Position numbers and translations under genes: made by a program. The notes below the pieces were generated by a model. That model did no database searches, was not told the origin of the DNA, and saw only the letters and a program-made list of their open reading frames with translations. Positions 8,261 through 43,620 of a DNA stretch of 55,101 nucleotides are shown here, piece after piece; the first letter of the stretch is position 1, and each line of letters opens with the position of its first letter. This stretch comes from a virus (taxonomy: Duplodnaviria; Caudoviricetes). The DNA is taken from the IMG/VR virus record IMGVR_UViG_3300031862_000774, positions 1-55,101 of that record. The stretch is one strand, 5' to 3'.

Positions 8261-8325
8261 TATCAGCTATTTGCGGCCAGGGGGCCCTTTCGGGTCCATG
8301 TGCCATGTGTCCAGAAATGTGTCCA
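8261..8325 (+). promoter_or_regulatory. Prophage att arm: IHF consensus and ATGTGTCCA arm-type repeats
   Basis: TATCAGCTATTTG (8261-8273) fits WATCARNNNNTTR; ATGTGTCCA at 8305 and 8317. Confidence 0.55.
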
Positions 8326-8367
8326 ACGCTCCGCCGTTTTCGTGTTCTTCTCCATGCCCACTGAGCC

Positions 8368-8607: not shown

Positions 8608-8608
8608 T

Positions 8609-9697: not shown

Positions 9698-9698
9698 C

Positions 9699-10037
9699 CT
9701 ATGAGTCTTTTTTCTTGCTTTTCCTTTCGACTTTATAGTGGCTTTCCTCAAAAGAAGGCCCGATCACGGTACTGACCACATAGGTTTCGCCGATCCACCA
9801 TTGGCTCAATTTGATCATCGTGCTGTAGTGGAGGATCACCGCTCCATTTTCGAATTTTAGCGTCCACCAGCCGTACATACTGCCCGAGGGGCTCAGGGTC
9901 TCACCGCGACTCAGGTCCGGGCTGAAGACCGCATCTTTTAGGGCCGATTCGAACAGGACGGATTCCTTCTGCTCTTGAGCAATCAGAAAATTGAATAGAA
10001 TGAAGACTGTGCCTAAAAGAGCCGCACCTCTTCGCAT
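9699..10037 (-). CDS. Exported/membrane protein in immunity operon
   Basis: Signal-peptide-like N-terminus; GGAG RBS. Confidence 0.55.
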   Translation of the reverse strand: MRRGAALLGTVFILFNFLIAQEQKESVLFESALKDAVFSPDLSRGETLSPSGSMYGWWTLKFENGAVILHYSTMIKLSQWWIGETYVVSTVIGPSFEESHYKVERKSKKKDS

Positions 10038-12577: not shown

Positions 12578-12769
12578 ATGACTGAAGAAAAAAAAGCCCA
12601 GCTTGGGCAAGCCGGGCAAGAAGAACGCCTTCTCCGAATGGAGAAGCGAGATCTCATTAATCTCATACTCCAATACGAGAAGCGTGTCAAGAGGCCGGAA
12701 CAGATCTCTTCTTTTATCGAGGATTTCATCTTCAACGCGCAGGCCCAGGCGGGGGAAAGATTCAGATGA
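12578..12769 (+). CDS. Hypothetical protein
   Basis: ATGA overlap with the next gene. Confidence 0.5.
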   Translation: MTEEKKAQLGQAGQEERLLRMEKRDLINLILQYEKRVKRPEQISSFIEDFIFNAQAQAGERFR

Positions 12770-17720: not shown

Positions 17721-18178
17721 TGACATCTTTTTTGGCCAGGCCGTCCAAAGGCGACCATTCGCCCGGGGCAATCCGGCTATGCCTATTTATATCTTGCGCC
17801 GTTCTCGCTGTCATTATCCTCCTCGGCTCGCAGACCTACGTCTCAAAATTCAATCTTTTTAAGATCGCTTTTAAGGATCCCACCGAGTCGATCCTCATCC
17901 AATTCAGGAACGGGGATATCTACATTTACAGCACGCTGGATATAGGAGGGGTGACGGCCGACCCCGCCCGCATGCTTGACACCTTGACCAGGATAGAAGG
18001 GAAAAAGATATCGGACATCATCCAGATCACGCACAACCATTTTAGCGGCCGAACCTTCAACGAGACAGACAACGGGTTTCTCCGGTATTTCAAGGCCCAC
18101 GGTTTTACGGGGGATTTCAACATCTATCACACGGAATCGGAAACAACCGAAACAAAAAAGGAAAAAGGAGATAAATGA
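17720..18178 (+). CDS. Membrane-anchored JAB/RadC-like domain protein
   Basis: N-terminal hydrophobic helix; E...THNHFSG..FNETD resembles JAB HxH-x10-D. Confidence 0.45.
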   Translation: MTSFLARPSKGDHSPGAIRLCLFISCAVLAVIILLGSQTYVSKFNLFKIAFKDPTESILIQFRNGDIYIYSTLDIGGVTADPARMLDTLTRIEGKKISDIIQITHNHFSGRTFNETDNGFLRYFKAHGFTGDFNIYHTESETTETKKEKGDK

Positions 18179-19845
18179 TGAAGCAAAATTATCGGGAGAT
18201 CCTGCTGGCCGACCTGGCGGGAAACCCCAGGAATCCGAGGAAGCAGTTCACCGGGCCGAAGTTCGACGAACTCACGGCGTCGGTCAAGGAGAAGGGCGTC
18301 ATCGAGCCGATCATCGTCAGGCCTAAGAAGTTCAAGAACACGAGCTTCGAGATCGTCGCCGGCGAGAGGCGCTACCACGCGGCGAGCCTGGCGGGGCTAA
18401 AGACGATCCCCGCAGTCATCCGGGAGCTCACCGATGAGCAGGCCTTCGACTTCATGCTGATCGAGAACCTGCAGCGCGAGGACCTGACGGAGTTCGAGGA
18501 GGCCGAGAGCTTCAAGGCCTACGTCGGGAAGCATGGCGAGGATGGGATCCCGGGCCTCGCGGAGAAGACGGGGATATCGCCGCAGTACATCCGCCGGCGG
18601 ATGGCTGTGCTGGCGCTCCCTGGGCAAGCACTCGAGGCTTGGAGGAAAGGCCGGCTCCGGTACGGGCACCTCGAGCAGCTCCTCCGGGTGAAGGCCTCGC
18701 CGAATTTCAAGGAGTTTTTCAGGCTGGCCATGGAGCAGGACCGGTGGGACGGCCAGACCACTGTCGAGGAGCTGAAGAGAAGGATCGACAATGAATCGCC
18801 GGCGCTCAGCCTGGCCTATTTCCCAATCACGCCGGAAGGCTGCGAGGCCTGCCCGAAGAACACGATGGTCCAGCGGGGCCTCTTCGGGATCGACGACGCG
18901 CAGAAGTCGCGCTGCCTCGACCCGGGCTGCTTCAAGAAGAAGCAGAACGACTGGCTCCTCGGACATTGGGATGAGAGCCCGCTTCGCAAAAAGTACGGGA
19001 CGACCGGGTTCAAGTTCAAAAACAAGATCGGCTATAACGACCACGAGAGCGTCAAGTCCTCTTTCCGGCCGGACGAGAAGTGCAAGGCCTGCCCCCATTT
19101 CCTGACGGTCATTGAGGATAGCGGAGAGGTTTCGACCTACGACGAGCAGGAGTGCTTTAACAAGGCCTGCCTGCGATCGCGGACAGCGAAGATGCGGGGG
19201 GATATCTCGGAGAGAGAAAAACAGGAGAGGAAGCCGGGCGACGTCCGGGTCTCCTGGCACGGCGAATATTTCCGTGACCTCTTTTTCGAGAAGCGACTGC
19301 CGGCGCGCCTCGCCTGTTTCGGTCCGACGTCGCAAGAAATGATAACCCTTCTTTTCGTGGCCGCGCTCCATGGCAATTCGGTCGCCCGGGATGCGATCTG
19401 GGAAGCGCTTAAGGTCAAATTCCGCGAGCGCTGGAATGAGGAGCGCCTATTCGGACGGATCCTGGCACTTCCCCATGCCGAGATCGACAAGCTCATCCCC
19501 AAAGCGGTCAAGGCGGTCGTCATGGATGGGCAGCACGTCGGCGATTACAGCGGCTTCGGGACGACGAACCGGTTCGCCGCGGCCAAGTTCCTGGGGATCG
19601 ATGTCGAGAAGGAGTGGGCCATGACCGAGGAGTACCTGCAGAAGAAGACCAAGGCGGAGATCATGGCAATCGGGAAGAAGCTCAAGATCTTCGCCGACGC
19701 GAAGGCCAAGGCATATCTCGCGAAAAACCTCAAGGGCAGGGAGCCGGGGAAGCTGAAGAAGGGCGAGCTCGTGGACCTGGTCCTCAAGTCGGGCGTGGAG
19801 CTCGTCGGCAAGGTGCCGGACGAGATCCTGAAGGCAACGAGGTGA
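18175..19845 (+). CDS. ParB/RepB/Spo0J-family protein
   Basis: NPRKQF, GVIEPIIVR, IVAGERRYHAA, ENLQREDL. Confidence 0.9.
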   Translation: MMKQNYREILLADLAGNPRNPRKQFTGPKFDELTASVKEKGVIEPIIVRPKKFKNTSFEIVAGERRYHAASLAGLKTIPAVIRELTDEQAFDFMLIENLQREDLTEFEEAESFKAYVGKHGEDGIPGLAEKTGISPQYIRRRMAVLALPGQALEAWRKGRLRYGHLEQLLRVKASPNFKEFFRLAMEQDRWDGQTTVEELKRRIDNESPALSLAYFPITPEGCEACPKNTMVQRGLFGIDDAQKSRCLDPGCFKKKQNDWLLGHWDESPLRKKYGTTGFKFKNKIGYNDHESVKSSFRPDEKCKACPHFLTVIEDSGEVSTYDEQECFNKACLRSRTAKMRGDISEREKQERKPGDVRVSWHGEYFRDLFFEKRLPARLACFGPTSQEMITLLFVAALHGNSVARDAIWEALKVKFRERWNEERLFGRILALPHAEIDKLIPKAVKAVVMDGQHVGDYSGFGTTNRFAAAKFLGIDVEKEWAMTEEYLQKKTKAEIMAIGKKLKIFADAKAKAYLAKNLKGREPGKLKKGELVDLVLKSGVELVGKVPDEILKATR

Positions 19846-29074: not shown

Positions 29075-30412
29075 ATGGAAATCAAACGTGTCCCGATCGA
29101 CCAGGTCGAGCCCTGGGAGAAGAATCCGCGCGGAATAAAGCGGAAAGACTTCGATCGGCTTAAGAAGCAGATCACGGAACTCGGGATTTATAAGCCGCTG
29201 GTCTGCACTCAGGAGAACGGCAGATATATCATCCTCGGGGGGAACATGCGGATCCGGGCCCTTAGGGAACTTGGCGCCCAGAAGGTCGATGTTTCGGTGG
29301 TCGAGGCGAAGACCGAGGCCGAAAAGCTCAAATACGCGCTCAGCGATAACGACCGCGCCGGGGAATACGATGATCAGGCCCTCGCCGAGCTTCTCTTCGC
29401 GAACCGGGACGGGATCGATCTCGAGGACTTCCGTATCGATATCGGTCCAACCATCTCTCTCGAGCGCCTTATGACAAGTTTCGGTCCGGACATCGCGGTA
29501 ACCGAAGAAGACATCGTCCCTGAGCCAGAAAAGACAAGCTCCACGCCGCGCGGCGCGCTTTTTGATCTTGGACCCCACCGCCTCCTCTGCGGCGATGCCA
29601 CCCAGGAATGGGCATACGCCGCCCTCATGGATGGGATGAAGGCCGACCTCATCTTCACCGACCCACCCTACAATGTGGCCTACAAGGGCTCTAAGCTCGG
29701 AACCATCGCTGGCGATGACATGACGGAAGAGGAATTTATAGAGTTTTCGTGTCGCTTCATGGCGCAACTCAAGGAGAACACAAAGCGGGGCGGAGCATTC
29801 TATATCTGCAGTGGCTATAGCTCCTATCCGGTTTTCCTATATGCCCTCCACCAAGCCGGATTGACCTTCTCGACTCCTATAGTTTGGGTCAAGAATAATA
29901 CCTCTCTCGGCTGGGGCGATTACCGGCATAAACACGAGATGCTTCTCAAGGGCCGTTCATCCCGCCAGAAAAAGAGCGCGCAACCTATCCTCTATGGCTG
30001 GAAGGGCGGACGCCATTACTTCCCAGAAAGCCGCTTCGAGGCCGACGTTTGGGAGATGAACCGTCGTGGCAGTTCGAACATGCTTCACCCCACTCAAAAG
30101 CCCCTCGGCCTTATCCAGCGCGCCATCCGTAATTCAAGCCGAAAAGGAGAGTGTGTGCTTGATCCATTCGCTGGTTCTGGCTCCACCCTGGTCGGCGCCG
30201 AACGGGAGGGCCGCGTGGCTTATGTTATGGACCTCGATCCACTCTGCGTAGACACGACCATCCGCCGATATGCCGCCCTCGGCGCACAGACGGAAGAAGA
30301 AATACGCCAGACCTGCCGCCTCGTGCCCATTCGAGGAGAACAGGGAAGGAAGCCCAAGCTAATGCAAGGACCGGCCCGAGATCGCGCAACGTCGGCAATC
30401 GTGGAGAGATAA
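29075..30412 (+). CDS. ParB-N domain + N6/N4 DNA methyltransferase
   Basis: KNPR...GGNMR; TDPPY, HPTQKP, DPFAGSGST. Confidence 0.92.
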   Translation: MEIKRVPIDQVEPWEKNPRGIKRKDFDRLKKQITELGIYKPLVCTQENGRYIILGGNMRIRALRELGAQKVDVSVVEAKTEAEKLKYALSDNDRAGEYDDQALAELLFANRDGIDLEDFRIDIGPTISLERLMTSFGPDIAVTEEDIVPEPEKTSSTPRGALFDLGPHRLLCGDATQEWAYAALMDGMKADLIFTDPPYNVAYKGSKLGTIAGDDMTEEEFIEFSCRFMAQLKENTKRGGAFYICSGYSSYPVFLYALHQAGLTFSTPIVWVKNNTSLGWGDYRHKHEMLLKGRSSRQKKSAQPILYGWKGGRHYFPESRFEADVWEMNRRGSSNMLHPTQKPLGLIQRAIRNSSRKGECVLDPFAGSGSTLVGAEREGRVAYVMDLDPLCVDTTIRRYAALGAQTEEEIRQTCRLVPIRGEQGRKPKLMQGPARDRATSAIVER

Positions 30413-30458: not shown

Positions 30459-30917
30459 ATGGCTAAATTAAAATACAACGAGACATTTCCGGTCCTGGCG
30501 GAAAAGTACGCCAAGGAAGGAATGACTGATGCGCAGATAGCCAAGAAATTAGGGATTGGCGGTGGCACCTATTATAGATATCAAAAGAGGTACCGAGAGT
30601 TTTGGGAGTCCATAAAAAAGGGAAAATCTCCGGTGGATGACGATGTCGAAAATGCACTTCTGAAACGCGCCCTGGGTTACGATTACGAGGAGATCATGAC
30701 CGAATATCAGGTCAAAGGCAAGGAGGAGGAGAAGGCGAAACCGGTGACCTTAAGGCGGATAAAAAAGTTTGTGATCCCGGACGTCACGGCGCAGATCTTC
30801 TGGCTGAAGAACCGGCGTCCGGATAAGTGGCGAGACAAGCATGATTTCGAGTTCCCCCAGGGGGTTATGATCAAGATCATCTCCGCAATCCCCCGGTCGG
30901 ACAGAGTGAGCAAATGA
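30459..30917 (+). CDS. HTH terminase-small-subunit-like protein
   Basis: GMTDAQIAKKLGI, VENALLKRALG, AQIFWLKNR. Confidence 0.7.
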   Translation: MAKLKYNETFPVLAEKYAKEGMTDAQIAKKLGIGGGTYYRYQKRYREFWESIKKGKSPVDDDVENALLKRALGYDYEEIMTEYQVKGKEEEKAKPVTLRRIKKFVIPDVTAQIFWLKNRRPDKWRDKHDFEFPQGVMIKIISAIPRSDRVSK

Positions 30918-31486
30918 CATTCACTCCTAAGCAACGAAGATTTATCAAGGAGTATCCAAAGGATCTGAATGCCACGAGGGCGGCGGAGCGGTCCGGATTC
31001 TCAAAGAAGACGGCCCGTCAGCAAGGTGCGCGTCTGTTGTCAAAGGTTAACATCCAAGAAGCGATTTCGAGAGAACTCAAGAGACGGGAAAAGCGGACGG
31101 AGATCACGCAGGACAGGGTTTTAAGAGAGCTCGCGGTTTGCGGGTTCTCGGATATCAAGGACTACATCGATATCGACTCAGATACCGGCGCCATGAGAGC
31201 GAGGGGATTCGAAGGTATGCCCCAGCGAGCCAGCCGGGCTTTGAAGGGCATAAAAGAGGATCGCGTCATCAAAGAGGATGCAGACGGGAAAAAAGTCACG
31301 GTCTACGACAAAGTGCGCTTCGAACTCTGGGATAAACCGAAATCGCTTGAGCTTCTCGGAAAACATCTGGGGATGTTTGAAGAGAAATTCAAAGTCACCG
31401 GCGATCTCGGGGTGATCCTAAAGGTCATATCGGCCGTGCCTCGGCCGGGTCAGGAGGAGAAGGGTGCTCAGAAAGCTAAGGCGTAG
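30914..31486 (+). CDS. terS: Terminase small subunit
   Basis: KQRRFIKEY..DLNATRAA..SG.S.KTA...LL; LELLGKHLGMF. Confidence 0.9.
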   Translation: MTFTPKQRRFIKEYPKDLNATRAAERSGFSKKTARQQGARLLSKVNIQEAISRELKRREKRTEITQDRVLRELAVCGFSDIKDYIDIDSDTGAMRARGFEGMPQRASRALKGIKEDRVIKEDADGKKVTVYDKVRFELWDKPKSLELLGKHLGMFEEKFKVTGDLGVILKVISAVPRPGQEEKGAQKAKA

Positions 31487-32442: not shown

Positions 32443-34059
32443 TTGGCTTATACATTTTTAGAACTTCAGCAGTATGTCCAGGACAAGATAAACGCTGCTC
32501 GTCTGACCACCTGGACGGCGCAGAATGATGTTTCTTATTGGCGTGGACTTCAGCATAAATATGACCAGCAGCTTTTGGACGTGGTTGAGCAATATAAGGA
32601 CAAAGGCAAGCGGTTAATTGATGAATACAAGCGCCGCCTTAACGAGATGGATGAGTTAATCAGCGGGGCGGGGATTTCCATCGTCGATTTTAAGTCCGAC
32701 ATGAAGGCGTTGGTGGCGAAGGTGCTGAGGTTGGCCGATAAATATTGGGCTGTGCGGTATGAGATTGAGGGAAGGCAGAAGGGATTTTTTGTCCGCAAGC
32801 CTGTAGGTACAACTTACTACATCGACTTCGTGGATGGCCTTGACACGAATGACGGACTTTCAATAACGACGGCCTGGAAGACACTTGAAAAATACACAAC
32901 TGTTACGGTGAGGTCAGCGGGCGATATTGCACTGGTCAGGGCAAATAAAACAGAGATTCCAGCTGGAAATATTCCTTTTGATGAAAGCGGAAACAAGGGC
33001 AGCAGAATTTCAATAATAGGTTGTGATTCTGTGATTAATGACCCGTGGAACGACGATTCTGATGTGCTTCCGATTATAGATTTTAATGGGGCAGCTTATT
33101 GTGGTACGAAATATAGTAATGATTACTGGGACATAGAAAGACTTGATATTAAAAATGGAGCCTCTACGTATTATGGCACTTGGTATGACTACGAAAGTGT
33201 AGGAAATTTATACAAGGGAGTTAAATTCTCAACGACTGCAACGATTACAAAGACTATGATATCATCGATTCTTTACTTTTCTGAGTTTGTTGAATGTGAA
33301 TGGACAACCCCGCAAAATAATGGCGAAAGAATCGCCTATCAGCTTCAAGATTGTAGAATGTTAATTTTCAGAAAATGTAAATTTAATAAAGGCAATCTTG
33401 CAAACCCAGCTGAGGGATTATATTTAACCAGGTCTTTTGTAGAGATTATTGATTCGGAATTTGGACAGATAAGTGCATTAGATATCGATATTATAGGTTC
33501 ATCGGTTATTCTGATAAGAAATTCAAAAGTGGATATTACAAAAATTTCCATTGGTACAAGTCCTGGTGTAATTGTTCGCATGGAAGACCATAACCAGATT
33601 ATCTATGATGGATACGTAAAATATGGTCCTGGTCAAGTTAGCAGAGATGCGGCAATAAAAACCGGAAATGCTAATTTCTCGGTTAAAATAGAACCATCCT
33701 CTGGGTGCGGAATTTATGCACCATTGGATTTATCGGGTTATCAAACAGAGTCGCCTTTCCAGGTCAAACTCTCCGCCTCCGTCCAGAAGACGCTGACGGT
33801 GAAAATGAAAGCTGATACTGCCTGGACAGTCTATCCAACAGCGGTTGAGCTTTATCTTGAGGTGAGCTATTATAGCGATGGAGCAAATGCTAATAGAACA
33901 ACAATAAAATCGACTCAGGTCATAAGCCAGGTTGATACATGGACTGATTTTTCCGTCACAATCACACCCGCAAGAGACGGTATTGCATACGGGAACGTCT
34001 ATCTTAAAAAATATGAGGCTAACTTTATCAGGGTGAATGGCGAAATGGTGGTGAGTTAA
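32443..34059 (+). CDS. Parallel beta-helix (pectin-lyase-like) protein, probable fibre/spike
   Basis: TYYIDFVDGLDTNDGLS..TAWKTL opener followed by beta-rich repeats; AT-rich core. Confidence 0.65.
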   Translation: MAYTFLELQQYVQDKINAARLTTWTAQNDVSYWRGLQHKYDQQLLDVVEQYKDKGKRLIDEYKRRLNEMDELISGAGISIVDFKSDMKALVAKVLRLADKYWAVRYEIEGRQKGFFVRKPVGTTYYIDFVDGLDTNDGLSITTAWKTLEKYTTVTVRSAGDIALVRANKTEIPAGNIPFDESGNKGSRISIIGCDSVINDPWNDDSDVLPIIDFNGAAYCGTKYSNDYWDIERLDIKNGASTYYGTWYDYESVGNLYKGVKFSTTATITKTMISSILYFSEFVECEWTTPQNNGERIAYQLQDCRMLIFRKCKFNKGNLANPAEGLYLTRSFVEIIDSEFGQISALDIDIIGSSVILIRNSKVDITKISIGTSPGVIVRMEDHNQIIYDGYVKYGPGQVSRDAAIKTGNANFSVKIEPSSGCGIYAPLDLSGYQTESPFQVKLSASVQKTLTVKMKADTAWTVYPTAVELYLEVSYYSDGANANRTTIKSTQVISQVDTWTDFSVTITPARDGIAYGNVYLKKYEANFIRVNGEMVVS

Positions 34060-34068
34060 GAGGATATC

Positions 34069-34230
34069 ATGGAAGAGAAAAAATACGATTTAGAGACTAT
34101 CAAAAAGGCTTTCTGGGAGGCTTTTCATAAGAGCGGCGAACTTTGGTTTTACGAAATAGATTTTGATGAGGAGCTTCAATTCGCTGAAGAAGAATTATGG
34201 AAAGAGTTTGAAAAAAGTCTTATGAAATAG
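34069..34230 (+). CDS. Small acidic hypothetical protein (53 aa, not in ORF track)
   Basis: GAGG RBS, open frame. Confidence 0.5.
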   Translation: MEEKKYDLETIKKAFWEAFHKSGELWFYEIDFDEELQFAEEELWKEFEKSLMK

Positions 34231-34245
34231 GAAGAGGAGAAATAA

Positions 34246-35106
34246 TTGCCCATAATGGAATGGATTTCCGGTCGCCCGATTGCCACGGATTCCGACTTCA
34301 AAGAGTGGGCGTCTGGAAGGCCGTTTATTTATTATGTGCCAACGGGATTCATTTCTAAAAGCGTTTTGGATTCTGGTATTGGTTCGGACGCTCTATCACT
34401 CCTGAATAAACTATCAGTCTCGGATTCAGGCGTCGGCGTAGATACTTTTGGATTATTAGGCAAGATTCCCATTTCCGATTCTGGTCTGGGGGCGGATGTT
34501 CTTTCTATCCTGAACAAAATCCCGGTTCTTGACTCTGCCATAGGCGCCGATCTTCTTTCTATCCTGGTCCGGGTCGCCATTCTGGACGCCGGCACGGGCG
34601 CAGACTTAATCTCAGCGATCAAAGCGCTTATCGCAATCACGGATGCAGGGGTAGGTACGGATAGTATTTTCGTGTCGTCGCCGATTAAAACTATACAGGA
34701 TTCCGCCGCGGGCGCGGATGATCTGAGCATCAAAGGGAAGATTCCCATCTCAGATTTGGCCGGCGGGCTGGACTCCCTTGTCATCAAGCAATTCAAATCA
34801 ACCTCTGACTCGGCGCTCGGCTCAGAGATTCTTGCCATTAAAAGGCTCGTCTCGCTTGTGGATTCCGGCCTGGGATCGGAACTTTTTTCTATTCTTGTGA
34901 GGATTGCCATCCTGGACCAAGCCCTGGCCACGGATCTCGTGAGCGTTTTAGGGCAGAGGCGGGTCGTCGATCATGAGAAAGAGGAAAGACTGTTATTCCC
35001 TTATCTCTATTCCACCGCAATGCGCGGCCAAGGGAAACTGTTAGCCAAAGCTGTGAGGGAGGCCAGGAAGGGCCAACGTAAACTCATTAAGGAAAAAGAA
35101 GATTAG
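34246..35106 (+). CDS. Repeat protein (about 11 x 18-19 aa, [IV]xDSGxGxD), probable fibre shaft
   Basis: Tandem repeats visible in the translation. Confidence 0.65.
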   Translation: MPIMEWISGRPIATDSDFKEWASGRPFIYYVPTGFISKSVLDSGIGSDALSLLNKLSVSDSGVGVDTFGLLGKIPISDSGLGADVLSILNKIPVLDSAIGADLLSILVRVAILDAGTGADLISAIKALIAITDAGVGTDSIFVSSPIKTIQDSAAGADDLSIKGKIPISDLAGGLDSLVIKQFKSTSDSALGSEILAIKRLVSLVDSGLGSELFSILVRIAILDQALATDLVSVLGQRRVVDHEKEERLLFPYLYSTAMRGQGKLLAKAVREARKGQRKLIKEKED

Positions 35107-35107: not shown

Positions 35108-36442
35108 ATGTCTACGCAGGAAATCACCGTTGACCTCTCCCAGATCTACGACCCGCGGAGGAACCCGAAGCAGCTCCTCTTCCACCAGGCCCTGGAGACC
35201 TACAAGCTCTTCGGAGGCGCCATGATGGGGGGTAAGACGGCCGCCTTGATCAATGAAGGGATGGCGCTGAGCTTCGACTACCCGGGCAATTTCGGGCTGC
35301 TCATGCGGAAGACTTGGCCATCCTTTCGGGACACGGTCCTGCCTCAGCTCGAGAAGTTCCTGGATCGGCGGCTGGTCCGGGATTGGAACAGGTCCGAGAA
35401 GCTCATCGTTCTCTGGAATGGCTCGAGGATCCGGTATGGCGGGGTCGGGGATGCGCCCGATGACTGGCAGAAGTTCATGTCGGGCGAGTACGGCTGGATC
35501 GCCCTCGATCAGGCCGAAGAGTTTACGGAACAGGAGTTCCTCATGCTGGGGACCCGGCTCAGGCTCAACCTGCCGGGCCTACGGCCGTTCTTTCTCCTCT
35601 CCTGCAACCCGACGGAGGGCTGGATCAAGCAGCGTTTCATTGAGGCGATCCATCCGGACCATGTCTTCATCCCTTCCTTCTGGACGGACAATATCGCCAA
35701 CCTGCCGTTCGGCTGTATCGAGAGGATGCGCGAGCTTCTGCCCGAGGAGCTGCAGAACAGATATCTGAAAGGCGACTGGTCGGCGGTCGAAGAGTCCAAC
35801 AGCGTCTACCTCTACCTCAAGATCAAGGAGGCGATGGAGAGGAAGGTCGAGCGGTCGCTGCCCGTCGAGATCGGGGTCGACGTGGCGCGGTTCGGAGATG
35901 ACGAGACCGTCATCCCGCTTCGGGAGGGCGCGAAGGTCGAGATCTTCAGCCATGCCCGCGGGCACGATACGATGCGGACCGTGGGCGAGGTCTGGCACTG
36001 CGTTCAGGACCGGATCGTCCCGGTCTGGGGCAAGGGGGTCAGGGTCGCGGTCAAGGTGGACGCGGACGGCCTGGGCGCCGGCGTCGTCGACAGGCTCAAG
36101 GAGCTTCAAGAGGAAAAGGAAAAGGCCCTCGGGATAAAGATTGAGATCGTCGAGATCCACGGCAGCGCGAAGCCGAGGAATCCGATGATGTTCAAGAATC
36201 AGAGGGCCGAGATCCACTGGGGGCTCAGGGAGCTGCTCGACGATATCGCTCTGCCGCGCGACCCGATTCTGGCCGCCCAGCTCATCGCCATCAAGTACAA
36301 GCGCAATTCCGCAGGCCAGATCGAGATTGTCGACAAGGGGGAGATCAAGAAGAGACTTGGCCAGAGTCCGGATCGCGCGGAGGGGGTCATTTATGCCTTC
36401 GCCGAGGTCAAGCCAAAGGGAGTGAGCCATGTCTGTGTCTAA
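35108..36442 (+). CDS. terL: Terminase large subunit (prophage)
   Basis: GGAMMGGKT, IALDQAEE, SCNP, GVDVARFGDD, SPDRAE. Confidence 0.92.
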   Translation: MSTQEITVDLSQIYDPRRNPKQLLFHQALETYKLFGGAMMGGKTAALINEGMALSFDYPGNFGLLMRKTWPSFRDTVLPQLEKFLDRRLVRDWNRSEKLIVLWNGSRIRYGGVGDAPDDWQKFMSGEYGWIALDQAEEFTEQEFLMLGTRLRLNLPGLRPFFLLSCNPTEGWIKQRFIEAIHPDHVFIPSFWTDNIANLPFGCIERMRELLPEELQNRYLKGDWSAVEESNSVYLYLKIKEAMERKVERSLPVEIGVDVARFGDDETVIPLREGAKVEIFSHARGHDTMRTVGEVWHCVQDRIVPVWGKGVRVAVKVDADGLGAGVVDRLKELQEEKEKALGIKIEIVEIHGSAKPRNPMMFKNQRAEIHWGLRELLDDIALPRDPILAAQLIAIKYKRNSAGQIEIVDKGEIKKRLGQSPDRAEGVIYAFAEVKPKGVSHVCV

Positions 36443-37856
36443 ACCTGAGAAATCCAGGGTCTTCGTCTATACGAGCAAGAAAAAGCTTGTCCCCCAAAAG
36501 GAGCTGCGGAAGTTCGAGCTCACGAAGGACTCGAAGCAGGTCTCGGCGGAGGAGAAGCAGTTCTTCCACCTGGGCCTGGTCAGCCCGCCGTTCCCTCCGG
36601 AGTCATTCCTCCAGCTCATGGACTCGAACGTCTACTTCGACCGCTGCGTCCGGCAGATCGCCCAGGATACGGCCGGCCTTGGCTGGAAGATGGTCCTGAA
36701 GGAGGGGAAGGAGGAAGTCGACCAAGAGAGGCAGGAGATCGAGGCCTTTCTCCGGAAGCCGAACACGAAGCACCCGGATGAGTCCATGAGGGACATCATC
36801 CAGGCGTCCGTCATCGACCTCGAATCGGTCGGATGGCTCGGCCTCGAGGTCGTCCGGAGTCTGGGAGGGCAGGGCATGGAGCTCTATCACGTGCCGGCGC
36901 ACACCTTCAAGGTCCACAAGTCGAGAAAGAAGTTCTGTCAGCAGCGGAACCAGCAGAAGGTCTGGTTCAAGGCGTATGGCGAGAAGCTGGACATCGATAA
37001 GGATACCGGGGAGGCCGGGAAAGAGGGATTGAGCGAGGCGAAAAAGGCGAATGAGCTCCTGTACCATAAATCCTACTATGCCAAGTCCGATTATTATGGC
37101 GTACCGCCGATTCTGAGCGCCGTCGGCTCAGTCATGGCCTTGATCGGGATCCGGGACTATAACCTCGCCTTCTTCGAGAACTACGGAGTCCCGGCCGCGA
37201 TCGTTGTTCTCGAGGGTAACTGGGAGGAGGGCAGCGACGAGAAGCTCAGGGATTTCCTCGACACGGAAATCAGGAGATCTGAGAATGCTCATAAGACGGC
37301 CGTCCTAAGAGTGGCCGAGGGATGCAAGGCCACCTGGACCCCCCTTGTTACCGAAGTCAAAGAGGGGGCCTTCAAAATCTACCTCAAGATCCTGCGCGAC
37401 GAAGTCCTGGCGGCCCATTCCATGCCAGGCTACAGGATCGGGATCACGGAGACCGGTTCGCTCGGCGGGTCGACGGCCCGGGAGGCGACCGAGACCTACC
37501 TGTCCACGGTCGTGGAGCCGCTCCAGGAGACCTTCGAGGAGATTCTCGAAAAGCTCTTTCTCGACCGAGGCTGGGTCAATTACAGGGTCGAATTCGTGGA
37601 CATTGACGTCAGGGACATCGATGCGGAGGTCAAGCGCTGCGACATTCTCATCCGCATAGCGTCGATGAACCCGAATGAGGTCCGCAACCGGCTCTCGATC
37701 GGCGAACCCTACGAGGGAGGCAACCAGTTCTACATCGACTCGAGCCTGGTCCCCGTGGGCAGCGAGGGACTGGAGAAGGGGGATAAGTTCTCGGTCGCCC
37801 TCGATGAGCTGAGAAGGGGCCTGAGGAAATTGATCGATGAGCAAAAAGTTAGTTGA
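36429..37856 (+). CDS. Portal protein (PBSX/XkdE-like)
   Basis: YYGVPP, FFENYGVP, MNPNEVR; follows TerL. Confidence 0.9.
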   Translation: MSVSKPEKSRVFVYTSKKKLVPQKELRKFELTKDSKQVSAEEKQFFHLGLVSPPFPPESFLQLMDSNVYFDRCVRQIAQDTAGLGWKMVLKEGKEEVDQERQEIEAFLRKPNTKHPDESMRDIIQASVIDLESVGWLGLEVVRSLGGQGMELYHVPAHTFKVHKSRKKFCQQRNQQKVWFKAYGEKLDIDKDTGEAGKEGLSEAKKANELLYHKSYYAKSDYYGVPPILSAVGSVMALIGIRDYNLAFFENYGVPAAIVVLEGNWEEGSDEKLRDFLDTEIRRSENAHKTAVLRVAEGCKATWTPLVTEVKEGAFKIYLKILRDEVLAAHSMPGYRIGITETGSLGGSTAREATETYLSTVVEPLQETFEEILEKLFLDRGWVNYRVEFVDIDVRDIDAEVKRCDILIRIASMNPNEVRNRLSIGEPYEGGNQFYIDSSLVPVGSEGLEKGDKFSVALDELRRGLRKLIDEQKVS

Positions 37857-38667
37857 GCTTCACGATCTTGTCGTCGCATTCCTGAAGCGGACCGGCTACA
37901 GGGAGCGGCAGCGCGCTCGGGCCCTCGCGGGCGAAGGGGGAGTCCGCAAGAAGCTCGAGTCGAGCGTCAGGGGATGGATCCAGTTCATGCGCCAGCAGGC
38001 CGTCCCACTCGAGGAGCCGGACGAGGAGAGGCTCCTGGACTGGAAGGAGATGGAAACGAAGGGCGGGCGTATGCTCCGGGCTGCCTACCTGGACATTCTG
38101 AAGACCTTGGCTGAGCGGGCGGGCGTCTCGAAGCAGGAGGCCGCCGGGGTGCTCAACACCCAGGCCGTCACCTGGGCCGAGCTCTTCGCCGCCAGGATCA
38201 TCAAGCAGATCATCGACGAGACGAAGAAGGCCGTGCGCTCAATCATCACTGCGGGACTCAAGCAAGGGCTGTCCATGCCGGCTATCAACATGCAGCTCCG
38301 TCCGATCATCGGGCTGAATGACCGCCTGGCCGGCGCAGTCAGCCGCTACTCGACCGAGCTTTTCACCCGCCCGAAGTGGGCCGGCCTGACCGACGAGGAC
38401 CGCTTCAGCCGGATCGAACGTTATGCCCAGAAGCTCCAGCGCTACCGGGCGGACAATATCGCCAGGACGGAAACGGCGCACGCGATGGACGAGGGGACGC
38501 TTTTCCGGTACGAGGAGTTCGGGGTGAAGGAAGCGGAAGTCCTCGCCGCTCCCGGCGCCTGCCCGGTCTGCGCGGCGCTGGATGGCCAACGCTATCCCGT
38601 GGCCGAGGCCCATGGGATCCTGCCGGTCCATTGCGATTGCCGCTGCGCCTGGGGGGCTGCGTCATGA
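37837..38667 (+). CDS. MuF / SPP1 gp7-like minor head protein
   Basis: RADNIARTET, CPVCAALDG, PVHCDCRC. Confidence 0.88.
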   Translation: MSKKLVELHDLVVAFLKRTGYRERQRARALAGEGGVRKKLESSVRGWIQFMRQQAVPLEEPDEERLLDWKEMETKGGRMLRAAYLDILKTLAERAGVSKQEAAGVLNTQAVTWAELFAARIIKQIIDETKKAVRSIITAGLKQGLSMPAINMQLRPIIGLNDRLAGAVSRYSTELFTRPKWAGLTDEDRFSRIERYAQKLQRYRADNIARTETAHAMDEGTLFRYEEFGVKEAEVLAAPGACPVCAALDGQRYPVAEAHGILPVHCDCRCAWGAAS

Positions 38668-41486
38668 AGATAGAAGACATCTCGGCCGAGACGATCAAAA
38701 AGGTGGATGACCGGGAGCTCCGCAACCTGCGCTTCAGGTTCATCCAGCTCTGGGAGGGGACCTTCTCGAAGAGACACGGGCCCGAGGTCGCCGATTTCCT
38801 GAGTCATTACAGGATCCTCATTGGCGAGATGAACAGTCGCGGGATCGAGAGGCAGAACATCTATGACATCGATCGGGAAGTTATGAAGGGCGTCCTCTAC
38901 GGCTTTTCTCCTCAGGCCCTCGATGAATTTGTTTATATCCCCGATTTTGTCTCGATTGGCGGCAGTTATGTAAATTCGCCAAAGGGCGCGAATGACATCG
39001 ATCTTGTTATCAGGAAGGAAGGCTGGGATGAAGGATTGATTTTAAAGCTCGGCCGGATTCTGAAGGAACTCGGAACGGATCGGCTGCATTTCGTCTGGTC
39101 GCAAACCGGTCCGCATAGCAGTTACATCCCCGTCTTCGACTTGGTCCTGCGGCCGAAGAACGGATTCCAGAGGGTGGAGGTCGACGAGGGGCGGATCGCC
39201 AAGGCCGACGGCACCCAGGATGGCGGGCCCGTGGACAAGACGTCGTTGACGTTGGGCCGGCCCTTCACGCCCCTCAAGTCGCGCGGCGGGTATGGTGAGT
39301 ACGAGTTCGCCGACATAGACGTCCTCTGGACGACCTGGGCCCAGGGGTACATCCCGGAGCCCGGCGTGGCCGTCGAGACGAAATTCGACGGATTCCGGAT
39401 CCAGGTCCACAAGAGGCGAGACGAGGTCAAGATTCTCTCCGAGGACGCCCAAAGGGACCTCGCTGACAGGCTCCCTGACGTTGTCAAGGAACTCGAGAGT
39501 TATCCTGGCGACTTCATCCTGGACGGTGAGCTTCTGGTCTATCTCGGGGATAAGAAGGTCGAGCGGAGGGACATGCCCTCTTATCTGACGACGAAGGAGC
39601 CCGGGCCATTCAAGGCCATCGTCGAGTGCTTCGACTGCCTGTGGCGGGATGGCAAGCCGCTGAATGACCAGCCGTGGATGGAGCGCCAGAAGGCGCTAAC
39701 GGAGCTCTTTGGGAAAGTCGACGAGAAGCTTGTCCGGCGGGTCCAGTCCTCCCTGACCCACAGGGAAGCCGATTTCCGATCAGCCGTGAAGCGATGCGCC
39801 GCCGTCGCGCATTCGGAAGGCGCGATGTGCAAGGTCGTGAATTCCGAATACCCCCTGGATGGCCACACGCAGGAGTGGGCGAAATTCAAGAACTTCAAGA
39901 GCCTGGCCGTGAAGGTGACCGGCAAGGAGGCCAAGGAGGGCGGCGGCTGGATCTACACGTGCGAAATCGCCCAGGGGATACCGATCGGCCGGACCTACGC
40001 GACGTCACTCGAGGCGAAGGTTGGCGACGTCATCGAGATAGCGGCCGCGGAAGTGAAGCACGACGAGAAAGAGGACAAGTTCACCTGGGACAACCCCATC
40101 CCGAGGGAAGTGAAGGCCGGGGGCACGGCGCTGACGACGAGAGAGCAGGCCCTGGCCCTGTCGCGGCTGGGCCGGACGGCGCAGAAGGCCGAGGGCAGGT
40201 TGACGTACGCGGCGGGGGACAAGGGCACGGGCATCGCCCAGGTCCACATCATGGGACTCGATGAGAAGCAGGTGGGGGAGCTCAAGAAGGTCGGGGACAG
40301 GATCCGGGTGGCCGCGGCTGAACCGGCGAAGCTCAGGGCCGTACTCTTGGGGGCGATCGGCAACGCCGGCGCGCACGTGGACATGAGGCTGAGGAAAGGG
40401 ACGGCGAATTTCTGGGAGGGCAACGAGATCTTCATCGGGAACCTCGAGGGGCTGCCGAAGCTCGACAAGCTCAAGAAGGAGGGCGAGAGCCTGCGCAGCG
40501 ACTGGAAGGTGCCGCACAAGGACGAGCCCCGGGGCGAGACCATCCAGGGTCCGCTCGGCTGGATGGAAGCCGGCGCCCGCCAGCCTGACATCTTCCAGCC
40601 TGGGGAACCAGGGGCCACCACCAACAAGTACGGCGCGATGATCAGGATAGACAAGTTCACTTGGACCATCTATTACGCCAAGGAGGACGGCCACGCCTAC
40701 AAATTCCACTTCGACGGCGGCGTCTATCTCGACGGAAACTTCCTCTGGGCCTATGTCCCGATGGCCGAGGGCCGGATGTGGATGGTCAGGCGGCTGGACG
40801 ATGACGACGACAAGCAGCCCATGGAGAAACGGGAGCACGATCCCGGGTACGTTGCCGAGACCGAGCGCATCAACGAGAACAAGGAGAAGCCCGAGGCCTC
40901 GAAGCCTCATGAGTTCAAGAGGGCCCAGTGGACGTTCCCCAACGGCCATCCTCGCTGCCTGATGTGCGGCCAGGAGGAGCCCATAGGCAAGGTCTGCAAC
41001 ATGCCAGCCGGCTGGTATAAGAGACGCGAATGGGACGATGAGGCCGGCTGGGCGGAGGAACGCAAGAAGCTCAGGACCGAGGGCGTCATCAAATCGAAGG
41101 AGCCGCTCGCCAGGCCGGTCCAAAAGGACCTCGAAGTCTTCATCTTCAAAGAGGACCAGCACATTGCCGGCGGCATCGTCTACGAACCGGACACAGTCGA
41201 CGGCCAGGGAGACTGGGCCTCGGAGGATGACATCCGGGAGGCCGAATATTACTTCATGGAAAACTCCCAGCAATTCAAGGTCCGCCACAGGGGGGAGCCG
41301 GACCCGACCATCCGGATCCTCGAATCCTTCCTCGCGCCGGCGGATTTCAAGATAAACGGCCGTTTCGTTAAGAAGGGCAGTTGGTATCTCACCCTCAGAA
41401 TCAACAACGAGGCGGTCTGGCAGCAAATCAAGGAAGGGAAACTCACCGGGTTCTCGCTGGCCGGGACGGCGATGGAAGAGGCCTGA
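38664..41486 (+). CDS. 940-aa fusion: NTase-like + ATP-dependent DNA ligase + LigD-type phosphoesterase + XkdF-like prohead protease
   Basis: GGS..NDIDLVI; ETKFDGFR, FILDGEL, FDCL, EGAMCK, WAKFK; QVH...HVDMRL...YG..RIDK.TW; GIVYEPD..DGQGD...H...GSW...GFSLAG. Confidence 0.8.
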   Translation: MKIEDISAETIKKVDDRELRNLRFRFIQLWEGTFSKRHGPEVADFLSHYRILIGEMNSRGIERQNIYDIDREVMKGVLYGFSPQALDEFVYIPDFVSIGGSYVNSPKGANDIDLVIRKEGWDEGLILKLGRILKELGTDRLHFVWSQTGPHSSYIPVFDLVLRPKNGFQRVEVDEGRIAKADGTQDGGPVDKTSLTLGRPFTPLKSRGGYGEYEFADIDVLWTTWAQGYIPEPGVAVETKFDGFRIQVHKRRDEVKILSEDAQRDLADRLPDVVKELESYPGDFILDGELLVYLGDKKVERRDMPSYLTTKEPGPFKAIVECFDCLWRDGKPLNDQPWMERQKALTELFGKVDEKLVRRVQSSLTHREADFRSAVKRCAAVAHSEGAMCKVVNSEYPLDGHTQEWAKFKNFKSLAVKVTGKEAKEGGGWIYTCEIAQGIPIGRTYATSLEAKVGDVIEIAAAEVKHDEKEDKFTWDNPIPREVKAGGTALTTREQALALSRLGRTAQKAEGRLTYAAGDKGTGIAQVHIMGLDEKQVGELKKVGDRIRVAAAEPAKLRAVLLGAIGNAGAHVDMRLRKGTANFWEGNEIFIGNLEGLPKLDKLKKEGESLRSDWKVPHKDEPRGETIQGPLGWMEAGARQPDIFQPGEPGATTNKYGAMIRIDKFTWTIYYAKEDGHAYKFHFDGGVYLDGNFLWAYVPMAEGRMWMVRRLDDDDDKQPMEKREHDPGYVAETERINENKEKPEASKPHEFKRAQWTFPNGHPRCLMCGQEEPIGKVCNMPAGWYKRREWDDEAGWAEERKKLRTEGVIKSKEPLARPVQKDLEVFIFKEDQHIAGGIVYEPDTVDGQGDWASEDDIREAEYYFMENSQQFKVRHRGEPDPTIRILESFLAPADFKINGRFVKKGSWYLTLRINNEAVWQQIKEGKLTGFSLAGTAMEEA

Positions 41487-41500
41487 GCATCCATCCTCTT

Positions 41501-41561
41501 CCCTCACCTTTTGTGAAAACCCCCTCACTTTTTTGACCGCCAAGAGAGAACTCCTTATATT
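41501..41561 (+). promoter_or_regulatory. Putative late promoter 2 with tandem CCCTCAC boxes
   Basis: CCCTCAC at 41501 and 41522; TTGACC (41533) - 17 bp - TATATT (41556). Confidence 0.72.
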
Positions 41562-41743
41562 AGGGTTGAACGCAGGTGCAAATTAAGGGCGCCTGAAAAT
41601 CGCTTGTGCCTGGCGGAGTCCCGCAGGGGAGCCCGGCCGGACAAGCCGATGACGCCAGCGAGTCCCTTCCTCCGATCGGAGCTCGCCACGGGTCGGCGAC
41701 GCTTCATCTGACCTGAAAGAATCCGAATAGCCGAGGTGCAGAC

Positions 41744-42349
41744 GTGGCCCGCAGACTGATGGACATCAAACCGAAAGAGGTCAGCCTCGTCGAGCGGCCC
41801 GCTATTCGCAAGAGATTCTATGTCACCAAGGAGGAACAAGACATGGACGAGTTAATTGCGCTTCTAAAGGCAATCGTAGGCGAGGCCTCCAAGGAGGAGA
41901 CCGAGGCTCTGAAGGCACTGGGCGCCGATGCGGTCGACGCCCTCAAGAAGGCGCTGAGCCTTCTGGGTAAATATGTCGCCGACTTCCCCGATGACGTGAA
42001 GACCGCGATCTCGACCCTGGCCAAGTTCGCGAGCTACGGCTACCCGGCCCCCAAAAAGGAGACAGATGAAGAGAAGAAGGCCAGGGAGGCCAAGGAGAAA
42101 GAGGAGAAGGACACGCTCGAGAAGAAGTTCGGGGGCATCGAGAAGCAGCTCCAGGACATCGCCGGCCAGGTCAAGAGGAGCTCCGAGGACCTCGCGGGGA
42201 AGGTGGACGCGGTCAAGCAGGTCGCCGACGGCCTGGAGACCCGAGTCAAGAAGGTCGAGGAGATCCCCGGGATCAAGAAGAGCCTCGATGGCCAGGACGG
42301 CGACCCGGAGCCGGGCAAGTGGCCTTCGTTCTTTCAGAAGGAGGAATAG
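41744..42349 (+). CDS. Scaffold-like protein with N-terminal XkdF-type EVSLVERPA peptide; internal start at 41843
   Basis: GAGG RBS before GTG 41744; AAGGAGG before in-frame ATG 41843; coiled coil; precedes MCP. Confidence 0.7.
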   Translation: MARRLMDIKPKEVSLVERPAIRKRFYVTKEEQDMDELIALLKAIVGEASKEETEALKALGADAVDALKKALSLLGKYVADFPDDVKTAISTLAKFASYGYPAPKKETDEEKKAREAKEKEEKDTLEKKFGGIEKQLQDIAGQVKRSSEDLAGKVDAVKQVADGLETRVKKVEEIPGIKKSLDGQDGDPEPGKWPSFFQKEE

Positions 42350-42351
42350 CC

Positions 42352-43620
42352 ATGAAATCACCCAAACAACTGCTCTCTAAGGTAGCGATCCAGAAGGGGT
42401 TCTTCCCCTCGACCATCAATTTCACGGCCGAGGAGGCGGACAAGTTCCTGGACTACGTCATCGACCAGAGCGTCCTCAAAGACCACGCCAGGTTCGTCAA
42501 GATGGCGAAGTCCACCAAGAACGTCCGGGCCATCGGGCTCGGGACCGGCCGGGTGATGTGGCCGGAAGCCGCCTTCGATTCGACGAAGTACCAGACCGCC
42601 GGGACGGCGAACCTGATCGCCCTGACCTCGAAAAAGGCCCGGGGCGGGGTCAAAGTCCATGACGACGACCTCGAGGACAACATCGAAGGCGAGGCCTTCG
42701 TTGACCATCTCCTGCAGATGATCGCCAAGCAGATCGGGAACGAGCTGGCCGAGGCCTACTACAGCTCATACGCCACGCCGGACGGGCAGACCCCGAAGGA
42801 CATCTTCGACATCTGGAACGGCTGGCGCTACAGGATCCTCAACCAGACAAACCTGGTCACGGGGTCAGCAACCATCCTGGACGGCCGCAGCGCGAGCGAC
42901 TTCGCCTTGGCCAACGGGTACATCGCTGAGCAGAATCCCGCCGCTCCCTATAACTGGGAGTTCAAGTTCTCCAAGGCCCTGAAGAAACTCGCATCCAAGT
43001 ACAAGAGGCTGGGCCTCGAAAACTTCCGCTTCTTCGTCAACGACCAGCTCGAGCAGGATTACGTCGACTCCCTGGCTTCCCGGTCGACCATCGTCGGAGA
43101 CAAGGCCATTATCGAGGGCGGGGACCTTAAATTCGGAAAGGTCCCGATCGTGGGCTGCCCGCTCATGCCAACGAACCTGCCGGTGCCCGTGGCCAGTGGG
43201 GGAGACACGACAGTCGACGCTGATTCGGCTGCCGAGCAGAAGGTCCTCAACACCGCCGCGACCGACAATTTCACGGTCGGCGATTACGTCTACGTCTTCA
43301 AGGCAGGGCTCGAGTACAAGTCCGAGATCTGCAAGATCGCGTCGATTCAGGCCGGCATCTCCCTGACGATGGTGGACAACCTCGTCTGGGCGCACGCGGG
43401 TGCCGATGCCGAGACCGTCAAGGAGGTCACGCTCGACGGGGCCGACTGCATGCTCACGCACAAGGAGAACTTCATCATCGGGCTGGAGCGGGACATCAAG
43501 ATGGAGACCGAGAGGAAGGCATCCGAGGAGTCGACCTACTTCTTCTACTCCATTCGCTCCGACATCGCGGTCGAGAACCTGAACGCCGTCGTCTTCATCA
43601 AGAACCTCAAGATCCGGTGA
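42352..43620 (+). CDS. Major capsid protein (XkdG-like) with inserted domain
   Basis: EADKFLDYVIDQSVL, DDLEDNIEG, ENFIIG..RDIKME; position after scaffold. Confidence 0.85.
   Translation: MKSPKQLLSKVAIQKGFFPSTINFTAEEADKFLDYVIDQSVLKDHARFVKMAKSTKNVRAIGLGTGRVMWPEAAFDSTKYQTAGTANLIALTSKKARGGVKVHDDDLEDNIEGEAFVDHLLQMIAKQIGNELAEAYYSSYATPDGQTPKDIFDIWNGWRYRILNQTNLVTGSATILDGRSASDFALANGYIAEQNPAAPYNWEFKFSKALKKLASKYKRLGLENFRFFVNDQLEQDYVDSLASRSTIVGDKAIIEGGDLKFGKVPIVGCPLMPTNLPVPVASGGDTTVDADSAAEQKVLNTAATDNFTVGDYVYVFKAGLEYKSEICKIASIQAGISLTMVDNLVWAHAGADAETVKEVTLDGADCMLTHKENFIIGLERDIKMETERKASEESTYFFYSIRSDIAVENLNAVVFIKNLKIR

Follow-up and report, generated by a model that had tools for sequence, protein, structure and literature searches.

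Our data show that the provirus record IMGVR_UViG_3300031862_000774 (Duplodnaviria; Caudoviricetes) encodes, in one open reading frame (ORF) among its phage head genes, an ATP-dependent DNA ligase joined to a prohead protease. We analyzed the whole record (the window), which comprises 55101 bases in IMG/VR and is estimated to be complete by CheckV. The ORF (38664-41486, + strand) translates into 940 residues uninterrupted by a stop codon. It lies between a MuF-like gene and scaffold-like and capsid-like genes, and both its translation and the matches of its neighbors confirm this placement, which had been proposed in an initial annotation made from the nucleotide sequence. We consider it very probable that this ORF represents one genuine gene, whose product is a polyvalent phage head protein composed, in order, of a helical subdomain, a nucleotidyltransferase (NTase)-like domain, the ligase, a LigD-type phosphoesterase (PE), a zinc-finger-like module, and the protease. 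Together, our data show that this architecture is real and widespread in metagenomes, and suggest that the virus may load DNA repair enzymes into its capsid for putative delivery into a new host.

On sequence evidence, the identities of the ligase and of the XkdF-type protease are firm. The adenylation domain of the ligase (residues ~190-409; 39231..39890, +) matches the Pfam family PF01068 (DNA_ligase_A_M) at residues 234-409 with an E-value of 1.4e-23 and 84.1 bits, against a cut-off of 26.2. A sequence search of the PDB returned archaeal and eukaryotic ligases as well as the ligase domain of M. tuberculosis LigD, matching over residues 179-481, with the archaeal ligases 3gde (E = 1.7e-11) and 3rr5 (E = 2.8e-11) among the matches. 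An alignment of 11 relatives shows K240/D242/G243/R245, D287/E289, E385-K390, and W405/K407/K409 unchanged in all 11, which argues for active enzymes; we take these residues to represent ligase motifs I (KxDGxR, with the adenylylated lysine at K240), III, IV, and V. The lysine at nucleotide 39381 that the initial annotation had listed among the core motifs of an ATP-dependent ligase is K240, and the PF01068 match and the invariant motif residues bear that call out. The adenylation domain is followed by a putative short OB-like domain (residues 410-485; 39891..40118, +), indicated by PDB sequence alignments that reach residue 440 for 3gde and residue 481 for 1vs0, the M. tuberculosis LigD ligase domain. 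These alignments extend into the OB-like region proposed earlier, and the family PF04679 was unmatched there. Because it is without an N-terminal DNA-binding domain, we classify the enzyme as a minimal ligase. The best NCBIfam models are those of LigD/non-homologous end joining (NHEJ) ligases (79.9 and 76.6 bits), which lead the other ligase models by only a small margin. All of the matching NCBIfam ligase models (E = 1.8e-22 and weaker) fall well short of their cut-offs.

The C-terminal protease (residues 816-940 plus the stop codon; 41109..41486, +) matches PF14550 (Peptidase_S78_2) at residues 830-938 with an E-value of 1.5e-25 and 90.1 bits, against a cut-off of 24. The PHROGs database agrees (phrog_3017, head maturation protease, E = 1.1e-33), and the XkdF-like protease predicted at this end of the chain is therefore upheld. 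Residues D846, Q848, D850, H875, and S931 are invariant in an 11-sequence alignment. This domain is the only prohead protease recognized in the head module of the phage.

A HMMER search of 1.84 billion representative sequences resolved the region between the ligase and the protease (residues 477-829) into two modules, a domain of ~220 residues and a His/Cys module of ~90 residues. We aligned the first of these (residues 500-727) with 45 relatives and predicted its structure with AlphaFold 2 (AF2), resulting in a model with pLDDT 93.4 and pTM 0.89. The top four PDB matches of this model in Foldseek are all LigD PE domains (E = 3.3e-4 to 2.1e-3), and the next, unrelated match has an E-value of 0.038. 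In VIA-align, the only strong PDB matches are six LigD PE structures: 3p43 (Z = 13.0, 123/124 residues, root-mean-square deviation (rmsd) 2.5), 3p4h (Z = 12.8), 3n9d and 3n9b (Z = 11.0 each), 5dmp (Z = 9.6), and 2lj6 (Z = 8.9); the next, unrelated structure scores Z = 3.9.

In the active-site passages of the LigD PE study PMC3082917, two histidines and an aspartate bind manganese, an arginine, a histidine, and a tyrosine lie at the phosphate, and the residues are spaced H-x5-H-x-D-x-R ... H-x3-Y. In the CkoPE enzyme described there, H9, H15, and D17 are metal ligands, R19 binds phosphate, and H51 and Y55 form a second phosphate pair. In the fusion protein, Q526-x-H528 (the QVH motif, residues 526-528, nucleotides 40239-40247) and H571-x-D573-x-R575 (within HVDMRL, residues 571-576, nucleotides 40374-40391) are nearly invariant across 46 sequences. 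H528, H571, D573, and R575 (H29, H72, D74, and R76 in segment numbering) match the metal ligands and phosphate-binding arginine given for CkoPE and MbaPE in the same passages (PMC3082917), and the HxDxR motif aligns to HYDFRLE of canonical PE domains. In the model, a helical insertion of ~42 residues separates the two metal-binding histidines, and the insertions are shorter in relatives. K615, W633, and H677 are also nearly invariant in the family.

Relatives of the fusion protein provide transitive sequence links to canonical PE domains. A hidden Markov model (HMM) built from ten canonical PE domains, taken from Chloroflexota genomes, matches the same region in the relative P0056 (E = 4.4e-6 in a set of 229), in P0126, and in others. 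The Pfam LigD_N model (PF13298) aligns to P0056 over model positions 6-105 of 107 with an E-value of 0.002, and to P0190 (E = 0.0011) and P0035 (E = 0.15), each time below threshold. A 660-residue protein that adjoins a homologous ligase in a Dehalococcoides metagenome-assembled genome (MAG; locus L020) passes the LigD_N threshold when its whole ORF is scanned (50.4 against 31.1 bits; scans of this genome gave 29.2 bits in one case and no match in a wider one), and it is also matched by our PE-like family HMM (21.4 bits). We conclude that the middle segment (residues 518-715; 40215..40808, +) is a beta-barrel that belongs, by its predicted fold and its metal site, to the LigD PE superfamily as a divergent member, and that its phosphate-binding side is probably altered. 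The initial annotation had recognized a LigD phosphoesterase here from short motifs, a reading borne out by the fold match, the conserved metal motif, and the transitive links to PF13298. The L020 locus encodes a 433-residue minimal ligase homologous to that of the fusion, and, after it, an open frame at least 660 residues long in which we count three tandem PE-like repeats by eye, two stretches of it called LigD_N by Pfam. This locus is a split, multi-PE version of the same ligase/PE pairing.

The N-terminal segment gave an AF2 model with pLDDT 90.2 and pTM 0.62 that is helical over residues 1-80 and continues into a small alpha/beta domain at residues 89-162. The helical subdomain (residues 1-85; 38664..38918, +) begins with a conserved M[KR]IE[DE] start and is conserved across relatives. 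Its modeled helices (residues 8-11, 16-32, 40-58, and 68-79) agree with the small helical domain proposed at this end, and its PDB matches are generic helical structures only, with Z up to 6.2. The alpha/beta domain (residues 86-175; 38919..39188, +) contains the sequence SIGGS...NDIDLVIR at residues 97-117 (GGS-x10-DIDLVIR, with GGS-x10-DID at residues 99-113) and a later FDLVLR, and most of the 42 relatives in an alignment keep the motif. We take G[GS]-x9-13-D-x-[DE], found here on a predicted strand-helix-strand, to be the motif of pol-beta-type NTases. A Foldseek search with the model returned nothing at E <= 0.001 and minimal nucleotidyltransferase (MNT)/NTase structures at E-values of 0.2-0.85. 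A wide VIA search was dominated by generic helical structures, with no match at Z >= 8 and one alpha/beta match, 1no5_B (MNT HI0073; Z = 5.2, rmsd 3.5, 70 residues, 20% identity). The Pfam DNA_pol_B_palm model matches 4 of the 42 relatives (best E = 0.0017) and leaves the query protein itself unmatched. An HMM of the N-terminal family lays the motif, weakly, on the GS..DxD of nine true NTP_transf_2 proteins (best E = 0.0011, in a tiny set), and the ESM Atlas yielded only weak NTP_transf_2 leads (scores 0.90 and 0.89, ranks 24 and 27). We consider it somewhat probable that this domain has a minimal NTase fold. The motif on which the initial annotation had based its NTase call stands, conserved in most relatives, and the fold support for that call is weak though consistent, and only suggestive (Z = 5.2). 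Checked segment by segment against folds and profiles, the ligase, PE, and XkdF assignments held, the PE by fold and not by Pfam, and the NTase assignment was weak.

The fusion recurs in metagenomes, with a constant N-terminal module, a constant C-terminal protease, and variable cargo in the middle. A word-index search returned 91 hits, the query among them, and PF14550 and PF01068 occur together in the precomputed annotation of 47 of the remaining 90; one relative of 940 residues is 84% identical to the fusion protein. We mapped the six segments of the fusion onto 226 other retrieved proteins, a set that was shaped by our queries and is no census. The protease is present in 116 of these, 89 of which also have the N-terminal module, and the distance from its end to the C-terminus has a median of 4 residues and exceeds 30 residues in only 1 of the 116. 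Among the 88 ligase-bearing modular proteins, a PE-like domain occurs in 79, always downstream of the ligase, and the protease in 72. An NTase-like module is found in 74 of the 88, directly upstream of the ligase in 23 and with other modules intervening in 51. Of the nine ligase proteins counted as lacking a PE, at least four match a PE of the canonical type on the upstream side of their ligase. Since the NTase-like module forms, together with the protease, a constant frame around variable cargo, it may not be specific to a repair pathway.

Other cargo found between the constant ends includes metallo-beta-lactamase (MBL; Lactamase_B_2) domains, S-adenosylmethionine (SAM)-dependent and D12 methyltransferases, uracil-DNA glycosylases (UDG), 2H phosphoesterases, and ADP-ribosyltransferases. 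Two relatives illustrate the range: P0126 combines a 2H/LigT phosphoesterase, a family-4 UDG, a PE-like domain, and XkdF, and P0056 combines a SAM methyltransferase, a ligase, a UDG, a PE-like domain, and XkdF. The His/Cys finger noted in the initial annotation is present as a zinc-finger-like mobile module (residues 726-815; 40839..41108, +) with the pattern H..F....WT.PNGHPRC..CG.EE....C. It occurs in 131 of the 226 retrieved proteins, a count biased by the module having been part of one query. In our protein the module follows the PE, and in P0003, P0004, and P0009-P0011 it lies between the N-terminal module and the ligase; it is also found in many proteins without any other module of the fusion. 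It has no Pfam match at E <= 10, and the ESM Atlas returned nothing usable for it.

The gene order portal-MuF-fusion-scaffold-like-capsid-like recurs in a Pacearchaeota MAG contig (L002) and in loci L004, L005/L006, L007, L008, and L010, so that the survey suggested by the initial annotation found the fusion again in the same slot. In a genome collection, the query alone retrieved no relatives, and an 11-sequence alignment retrieved two, from a Pacearchaeota MAG and a Dehalococcoides MAG. The MAG names among the relatives span archaea and bacteria. We rejected the possibility that the fusion is an assembly artefact, as dozens of intact fusions come from independent sources. L004 encodes the helical and NTase-like N-terminal module separately, in a 227-residue ORF (6001-6684), and a 932-residue ORF beginning 24 nt downstream (6708-9506) encodes MBL, ligase, PE, and protease modules. 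In L002, the N-terminal and remaining parts match in different frames. Either the gene is naturally split in these two loci or they share a frameshift.

Bacterial LigD and the archaeal NHEJ set likewise join an ATP-dependent ligase core to a LigD-superfamily PE barrel in one polypeptide, and the fusion PE keeps the His-His-Asp metal site and the arginine of the LigD PE. Unlike LigD, the fusion has no archaeo-eukaryotic primase (AEP)-type polymerase, and has a putative minimal pol-beta-type NTase instead; its domain order is NTase-ligase-PE; and it shares its chain with a prohead protease and has its gene in a phage head module. Its PE also differs from that of LigD in the helical insertion and, according to a low-confidence alignment, in being without a His/Tyr pair at the aligned positions. 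We rejected the assignment of the fusion to LigD itself, as it scores 79.9 bits against the equivalog cut-off of 373.2 for bacterial LigD (TIGR02776), has no AEP domain, and is encoded in a record with no match to Ku (PF02735) across its 55101 bp, which agrees with the earlier remark that no Ku is visible. The description 'independently assembled LigD analogue' offered in the initial annotation is reasonable, given the lack of a primase-type polymerase domain and of Ku, a ligase below the LigD cut-off, and a PE too divergent for Pfam.

Phage polyvalent proteins are the class that suits the fusion best; its cargo of repair enzymes is new, and is predicted, by analogy, to be packaged and delivered. 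In the passages that define the class, polyvalent proteins are multidomain, are encoded with virion genes, and have their assembly peptidase 'always at the C termini'; packaging and injection are predicted for them (Iyer, Burroughs, Anand, de Souza and Aravind, 2017; PMC5512222). The fusion is likewise large and multidomain, sits in a virion-gene context, and combines variable enzymes with a C-terminal peptidase. It differs in that its peptidase is of the XkdF type, a term absent from the article text of PMC5512222, where 'ligase' occurs three times, at least once in a passage on RNA ligases. Among 50,697 phage records, the best match to our query is AJP62006.1 of the ANMV-1 archaeal virus (KP703175), an 866-residue protein annotated as 'ATP-dependent DNA ligase' that matches query residues 95-693 with 24% identity. 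AJP62006.1 likewise contains an NTase-like motif, a ligase, and a PE-like region. Unlike the fusion, it is without an XkdF protease, is not located between MuF and capsid genes, and has a PE region without the long helical insertion. Cultured phages also encode XkdF fusions in which the C-terminal XkdF domain follows an N-terminal enzyme, including the Lactococcus phages 28201 and phismq86, Pseudomonas phages, and the Rhizobium phage RHph_Y1_11. These records are annotated as 'DNA methyltransferase' or 'DNA methyltransferase/prohead protease protein'; only their protease part matches our query (11-16% of it covered), and they contain no ligase or PE.

T4 Alt and P1 Dar proteins are targeted by separate signals or partners rather than by fusion to a protease, and they inhibit or modify their targets and are not known to repair DNA ends. 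In the sections that treat them, both are described as head-carried enzymes delivered with the DNA (PMC5512222, PMC9503650), as would be the case for the fusion. A literature search confined to article texts, that of PMC5512222 included, found no description of a prohead or XkdF protease joined to a DNA ligase or LigD phosphoesterase. Within the same scope, it found no description of phages that deliver ready-made repair enzymes to mend the incoming genome.

We propose that the fusion is a polyvalent head protein whose repair modules would be delivered with the phage DNA, and assign this explanation as a whole a rough probability of 0.45. Prohead proteases assemble inside procapsids and are built into them, and the constant C-terminal protease is therefore the likely entry ticket of the fusion to the capsid. 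In this model, the protease end would carry the chain into the procapsid and the protease would cut it at inter-domain linkers during maturation. The repair modules, still folded, would then remain in the capsid and accompany the DNA into the next host, where the phosphoesterase may clear 3'-phosphates or other blocking 3' groups from the incoming genome, the ligase may seal nicks or cohesive breaks made by host nucleases, and the NTase-like module could possibly add nucleotides. A frame that stays constant while its cargo changes is a typical trait of conflict proteins delivered by virions. We rate the delivered-repair mechanism itself as somewhat less likely than not. The initial annotation had further suggested self-cleavage at lysine-containing linkers; the linkers of the query protein, P0003, P0005, and P0022 often hold x-[EQ]-K by eye, an impression that does not count as evidence for the proposed cleavage.

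Several observations weigh against this proposal. First, fragments of prohead proteases usually leave the capsid, and the proposal assumes that the cargo is retained. Second, a PE-like domain is found without a ligase in 28 proteins, which implies that the PE need not act with a ligase. Third, the whole fusion is absent from cultured phages: none of the 50,697 phage records covers >=80% of the query. Fourth, direct sequence comparison leaves two segments without a significant match. Residues 1-234 have no Pfam match at E <= 10, to any NTase family included, and the first aspartate of the NTase motif is missing in several relatives. Residues 477-829 likewise have no Pfam match even at E <= 10, to LigD_N (PF13298) included, and the alignment profile of the PE segment has 0 matches among PDB sequences. 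An hhalign comparison of the PE family with the ten canonical PE domains, which we used only as a tentative residue map, gave E-values of 0.038-0.039 and probabilities of 1.3-1.4%. In this low-confidence alignment (E = 0.038), the 'DHPVDY' of canonical PE domains faces 'QGPLGW' in our protein, replacing the histidine with glycine and the tyrosine with tryptophan. As two of the six LigD PE active-site residues, the essential phosphate-binding histidine and the tyrosine, were thus not found at the aligned positions, the chemistry of the enzyme may differ or be lost. Judging from its conservation pattern, the trio K615, W633, and H677 might substitute for this second His/Tyr pair.

The head-gene position and the fusion to a protease would also fit with repair modules that act in the producer cell or in the procapsid during packaging, sealing nicks and cleaning ends in the DNA, with the protease fusion serving only to place or time them. 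Anchored within the prohead, a ligase would encounter the entering DNA and, by general ligase enzymology, could seal one nick without free ATP if pre-adenylylated. We nevertheless consider action during packaging unlikely: the methyltransferase, UDG, and ADP-ribosyltransferase cargo of the relatives makes more sense if these enzymes act in the next host, and the window shows no sign of nicked DNA.

Quite unlikely, in our assessment, is a role of the toolkit in joining the ends of the injected linear genome, a Ku-independent circularization comparable to that of the mycobacteriophages Omega and Corndog, which use host LigD at their cos sites. Phage use of NHEJ for circularization is documented (Pitcher, 2006, as cited in the relevant passage of PMC12848934) and offers a precedent, and a temperate phage with an integrase (8609-9751) must circularize before it integrates. 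However, the record lacks Ku, and encodes a small terminase and a Terminase_3-type large terminase. A PD-(D/E)XK/Gam-like recombination gene of its own could circularize a terminally redundant genome, and the variable non-ligase cargo of the relatives does not suit a core circularization role.

We consider it improbable that the modules are catalytically dead internal head mass of a core- or scaffold-like kind, or parts of a co-expression polyprotein that releases its cargo into the cytoplasm. The failure to find the phosphate-binding histidine and tyrosine of the PE in the low-confidence alignment would fit such a role, as would the degenerate NTase motif of some relatives and the separate N-terminal ORF of L004 (6001-6684, followed by 6708-9506). 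The (near-)invariance of the ligase motifs and of the PE metal triad and arginine in distant relatives would be unexpected of filler. Finally, action of the ligase and PE on RNA, such as the repair of tRNAs cut by host anticodon nucleases, is highly improbable: PE enzymes can resect 3' ribonucleotides and remove 3'-phosphates (activities reported in PMC3082917) and P0126 carries a 2H/LigT phosphoesterase along with its UDG, PE-like domain, and protease, but the ligase matches DNA rather than RNA ligase families, no 5'-kinase module is seen, and the D12 DNA methyltransferase and UDG cargo of the relatives points to DNA.

In its most specific form, the delivered-repair proposal states that a family of tailed viruses loads a Ku-independent kit for healing and sealing DNA ends (a LigD-type phosphoesterase, a minimal ATP ligase, and possibly a terminal nucleotidyltransferase) into its heads, tethered through a protease, and injects it to repair damage from restriction, CRISPR, or nicking enzymes. 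We regard this version as speculative and rather unlikely. If true, it would represent counter-defense by repair rather than inhibition, in a slot that is otherwise filled with methyltransferases, UDG, MBL hydrolases, and ADP-ribosyltransferases. If the cargo is packaged, phages would bring ready-made DNA repair enzymes to mend their incoming genome. The protease fusion would define a modular capsid-loading device, which may serve the engineering of packaged cargo. The LigD PE superfamily would also widen to include a large branch of viral members missed by Pfam, with an unusual insertion and a probably altered phosphate site.

Upstream of the fusion gene, the head module comprises a small terminase (30914-31486), the large terminase TerL (Terminase_3-type, 35108-36442), the portal (36429-37856, +; PF04860, E = 2.5e-28), and the MuF-like minor head protein (37837-38667, +; PF04233, E = 6e-8); PHROGs matches to these upstream genes include phrog_115. 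The ATG of the fusion ORF at 38664 overlaps the MuF stop codon (ATGA) and is preceded by a G-rich stretch. We prefer this start over a GTG at 38376 because the M[KR]IE[DE] start is common to relatives of the fusion protein. A non-coding gap of 257 bp (41487-41743) separates the fusion ORF from a scaffold-like gene (ORF201; 41744-42349, +), whose C-terminal part has a match in phrog_9427, at the tail end of this protease-scaffold family (E = 3.4e-4). The probable major capsid protein follows (ORF433; 42319-43620, +; phrog_1623, virion structural protein, E = 1.9e-53), with adaptor and tape measure genes downstream of it. The gap contains a sigma-70-like promoter sequence, TTGACC-17-TATATT, at 41533-41561 (1 found against 0.0 expected in shuffled sequences), and a scan of the intergenic region 41400-41800 against Rfam gave 0 matches. 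Gaps of roughly 215-270 nt in L004, L007, and L010, measured from tblastn match coordinates, are comparable in size.

Elsewhere in the record, two ORFs of 538 and 286 residues lie in 32443-35106, between the small and large terminase genes, and have no Pfam or PHROGs match. A ParB_N domain fused to an N6/N4 DNA methylase is encoded just upstream of the small terminase (29075-30412), and a separate 556-residue ParB-like protein (ParB_N and HTH_ParB) is encoded further upstream (18175-19845). Positions 12766-13944 encode a PD-(D/E)XK nuclease that includes a Mu Gam/Gp157-like region, and the gene after it (13895-14920) encodes a protein resembling a Gp3-like recombination directionality factor; these two genes indicate that the phage has recombination functions of its own. 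The phage is temperate, with its integrase gene (8609-9751) adjoining a tRNA-Arg.

In positions 1-9751 of the record, two integrated elements flank this tRNA. The left element encodes an HK97-type capsid protein (915-1991; Phage_capsid, E = 6.4e-83), a terminase-like ORF (4942-6474; phrog_9), and an integrase (6987-8135, +). It is followed by the tRNA-Arg(CCT) gene (8169-8244) and then, on the other strand, by the integrase at 8609-9751 with which the phage carrying the fusion begins. The left element might be the end of a second prophage or a capsid-encoding satellite.

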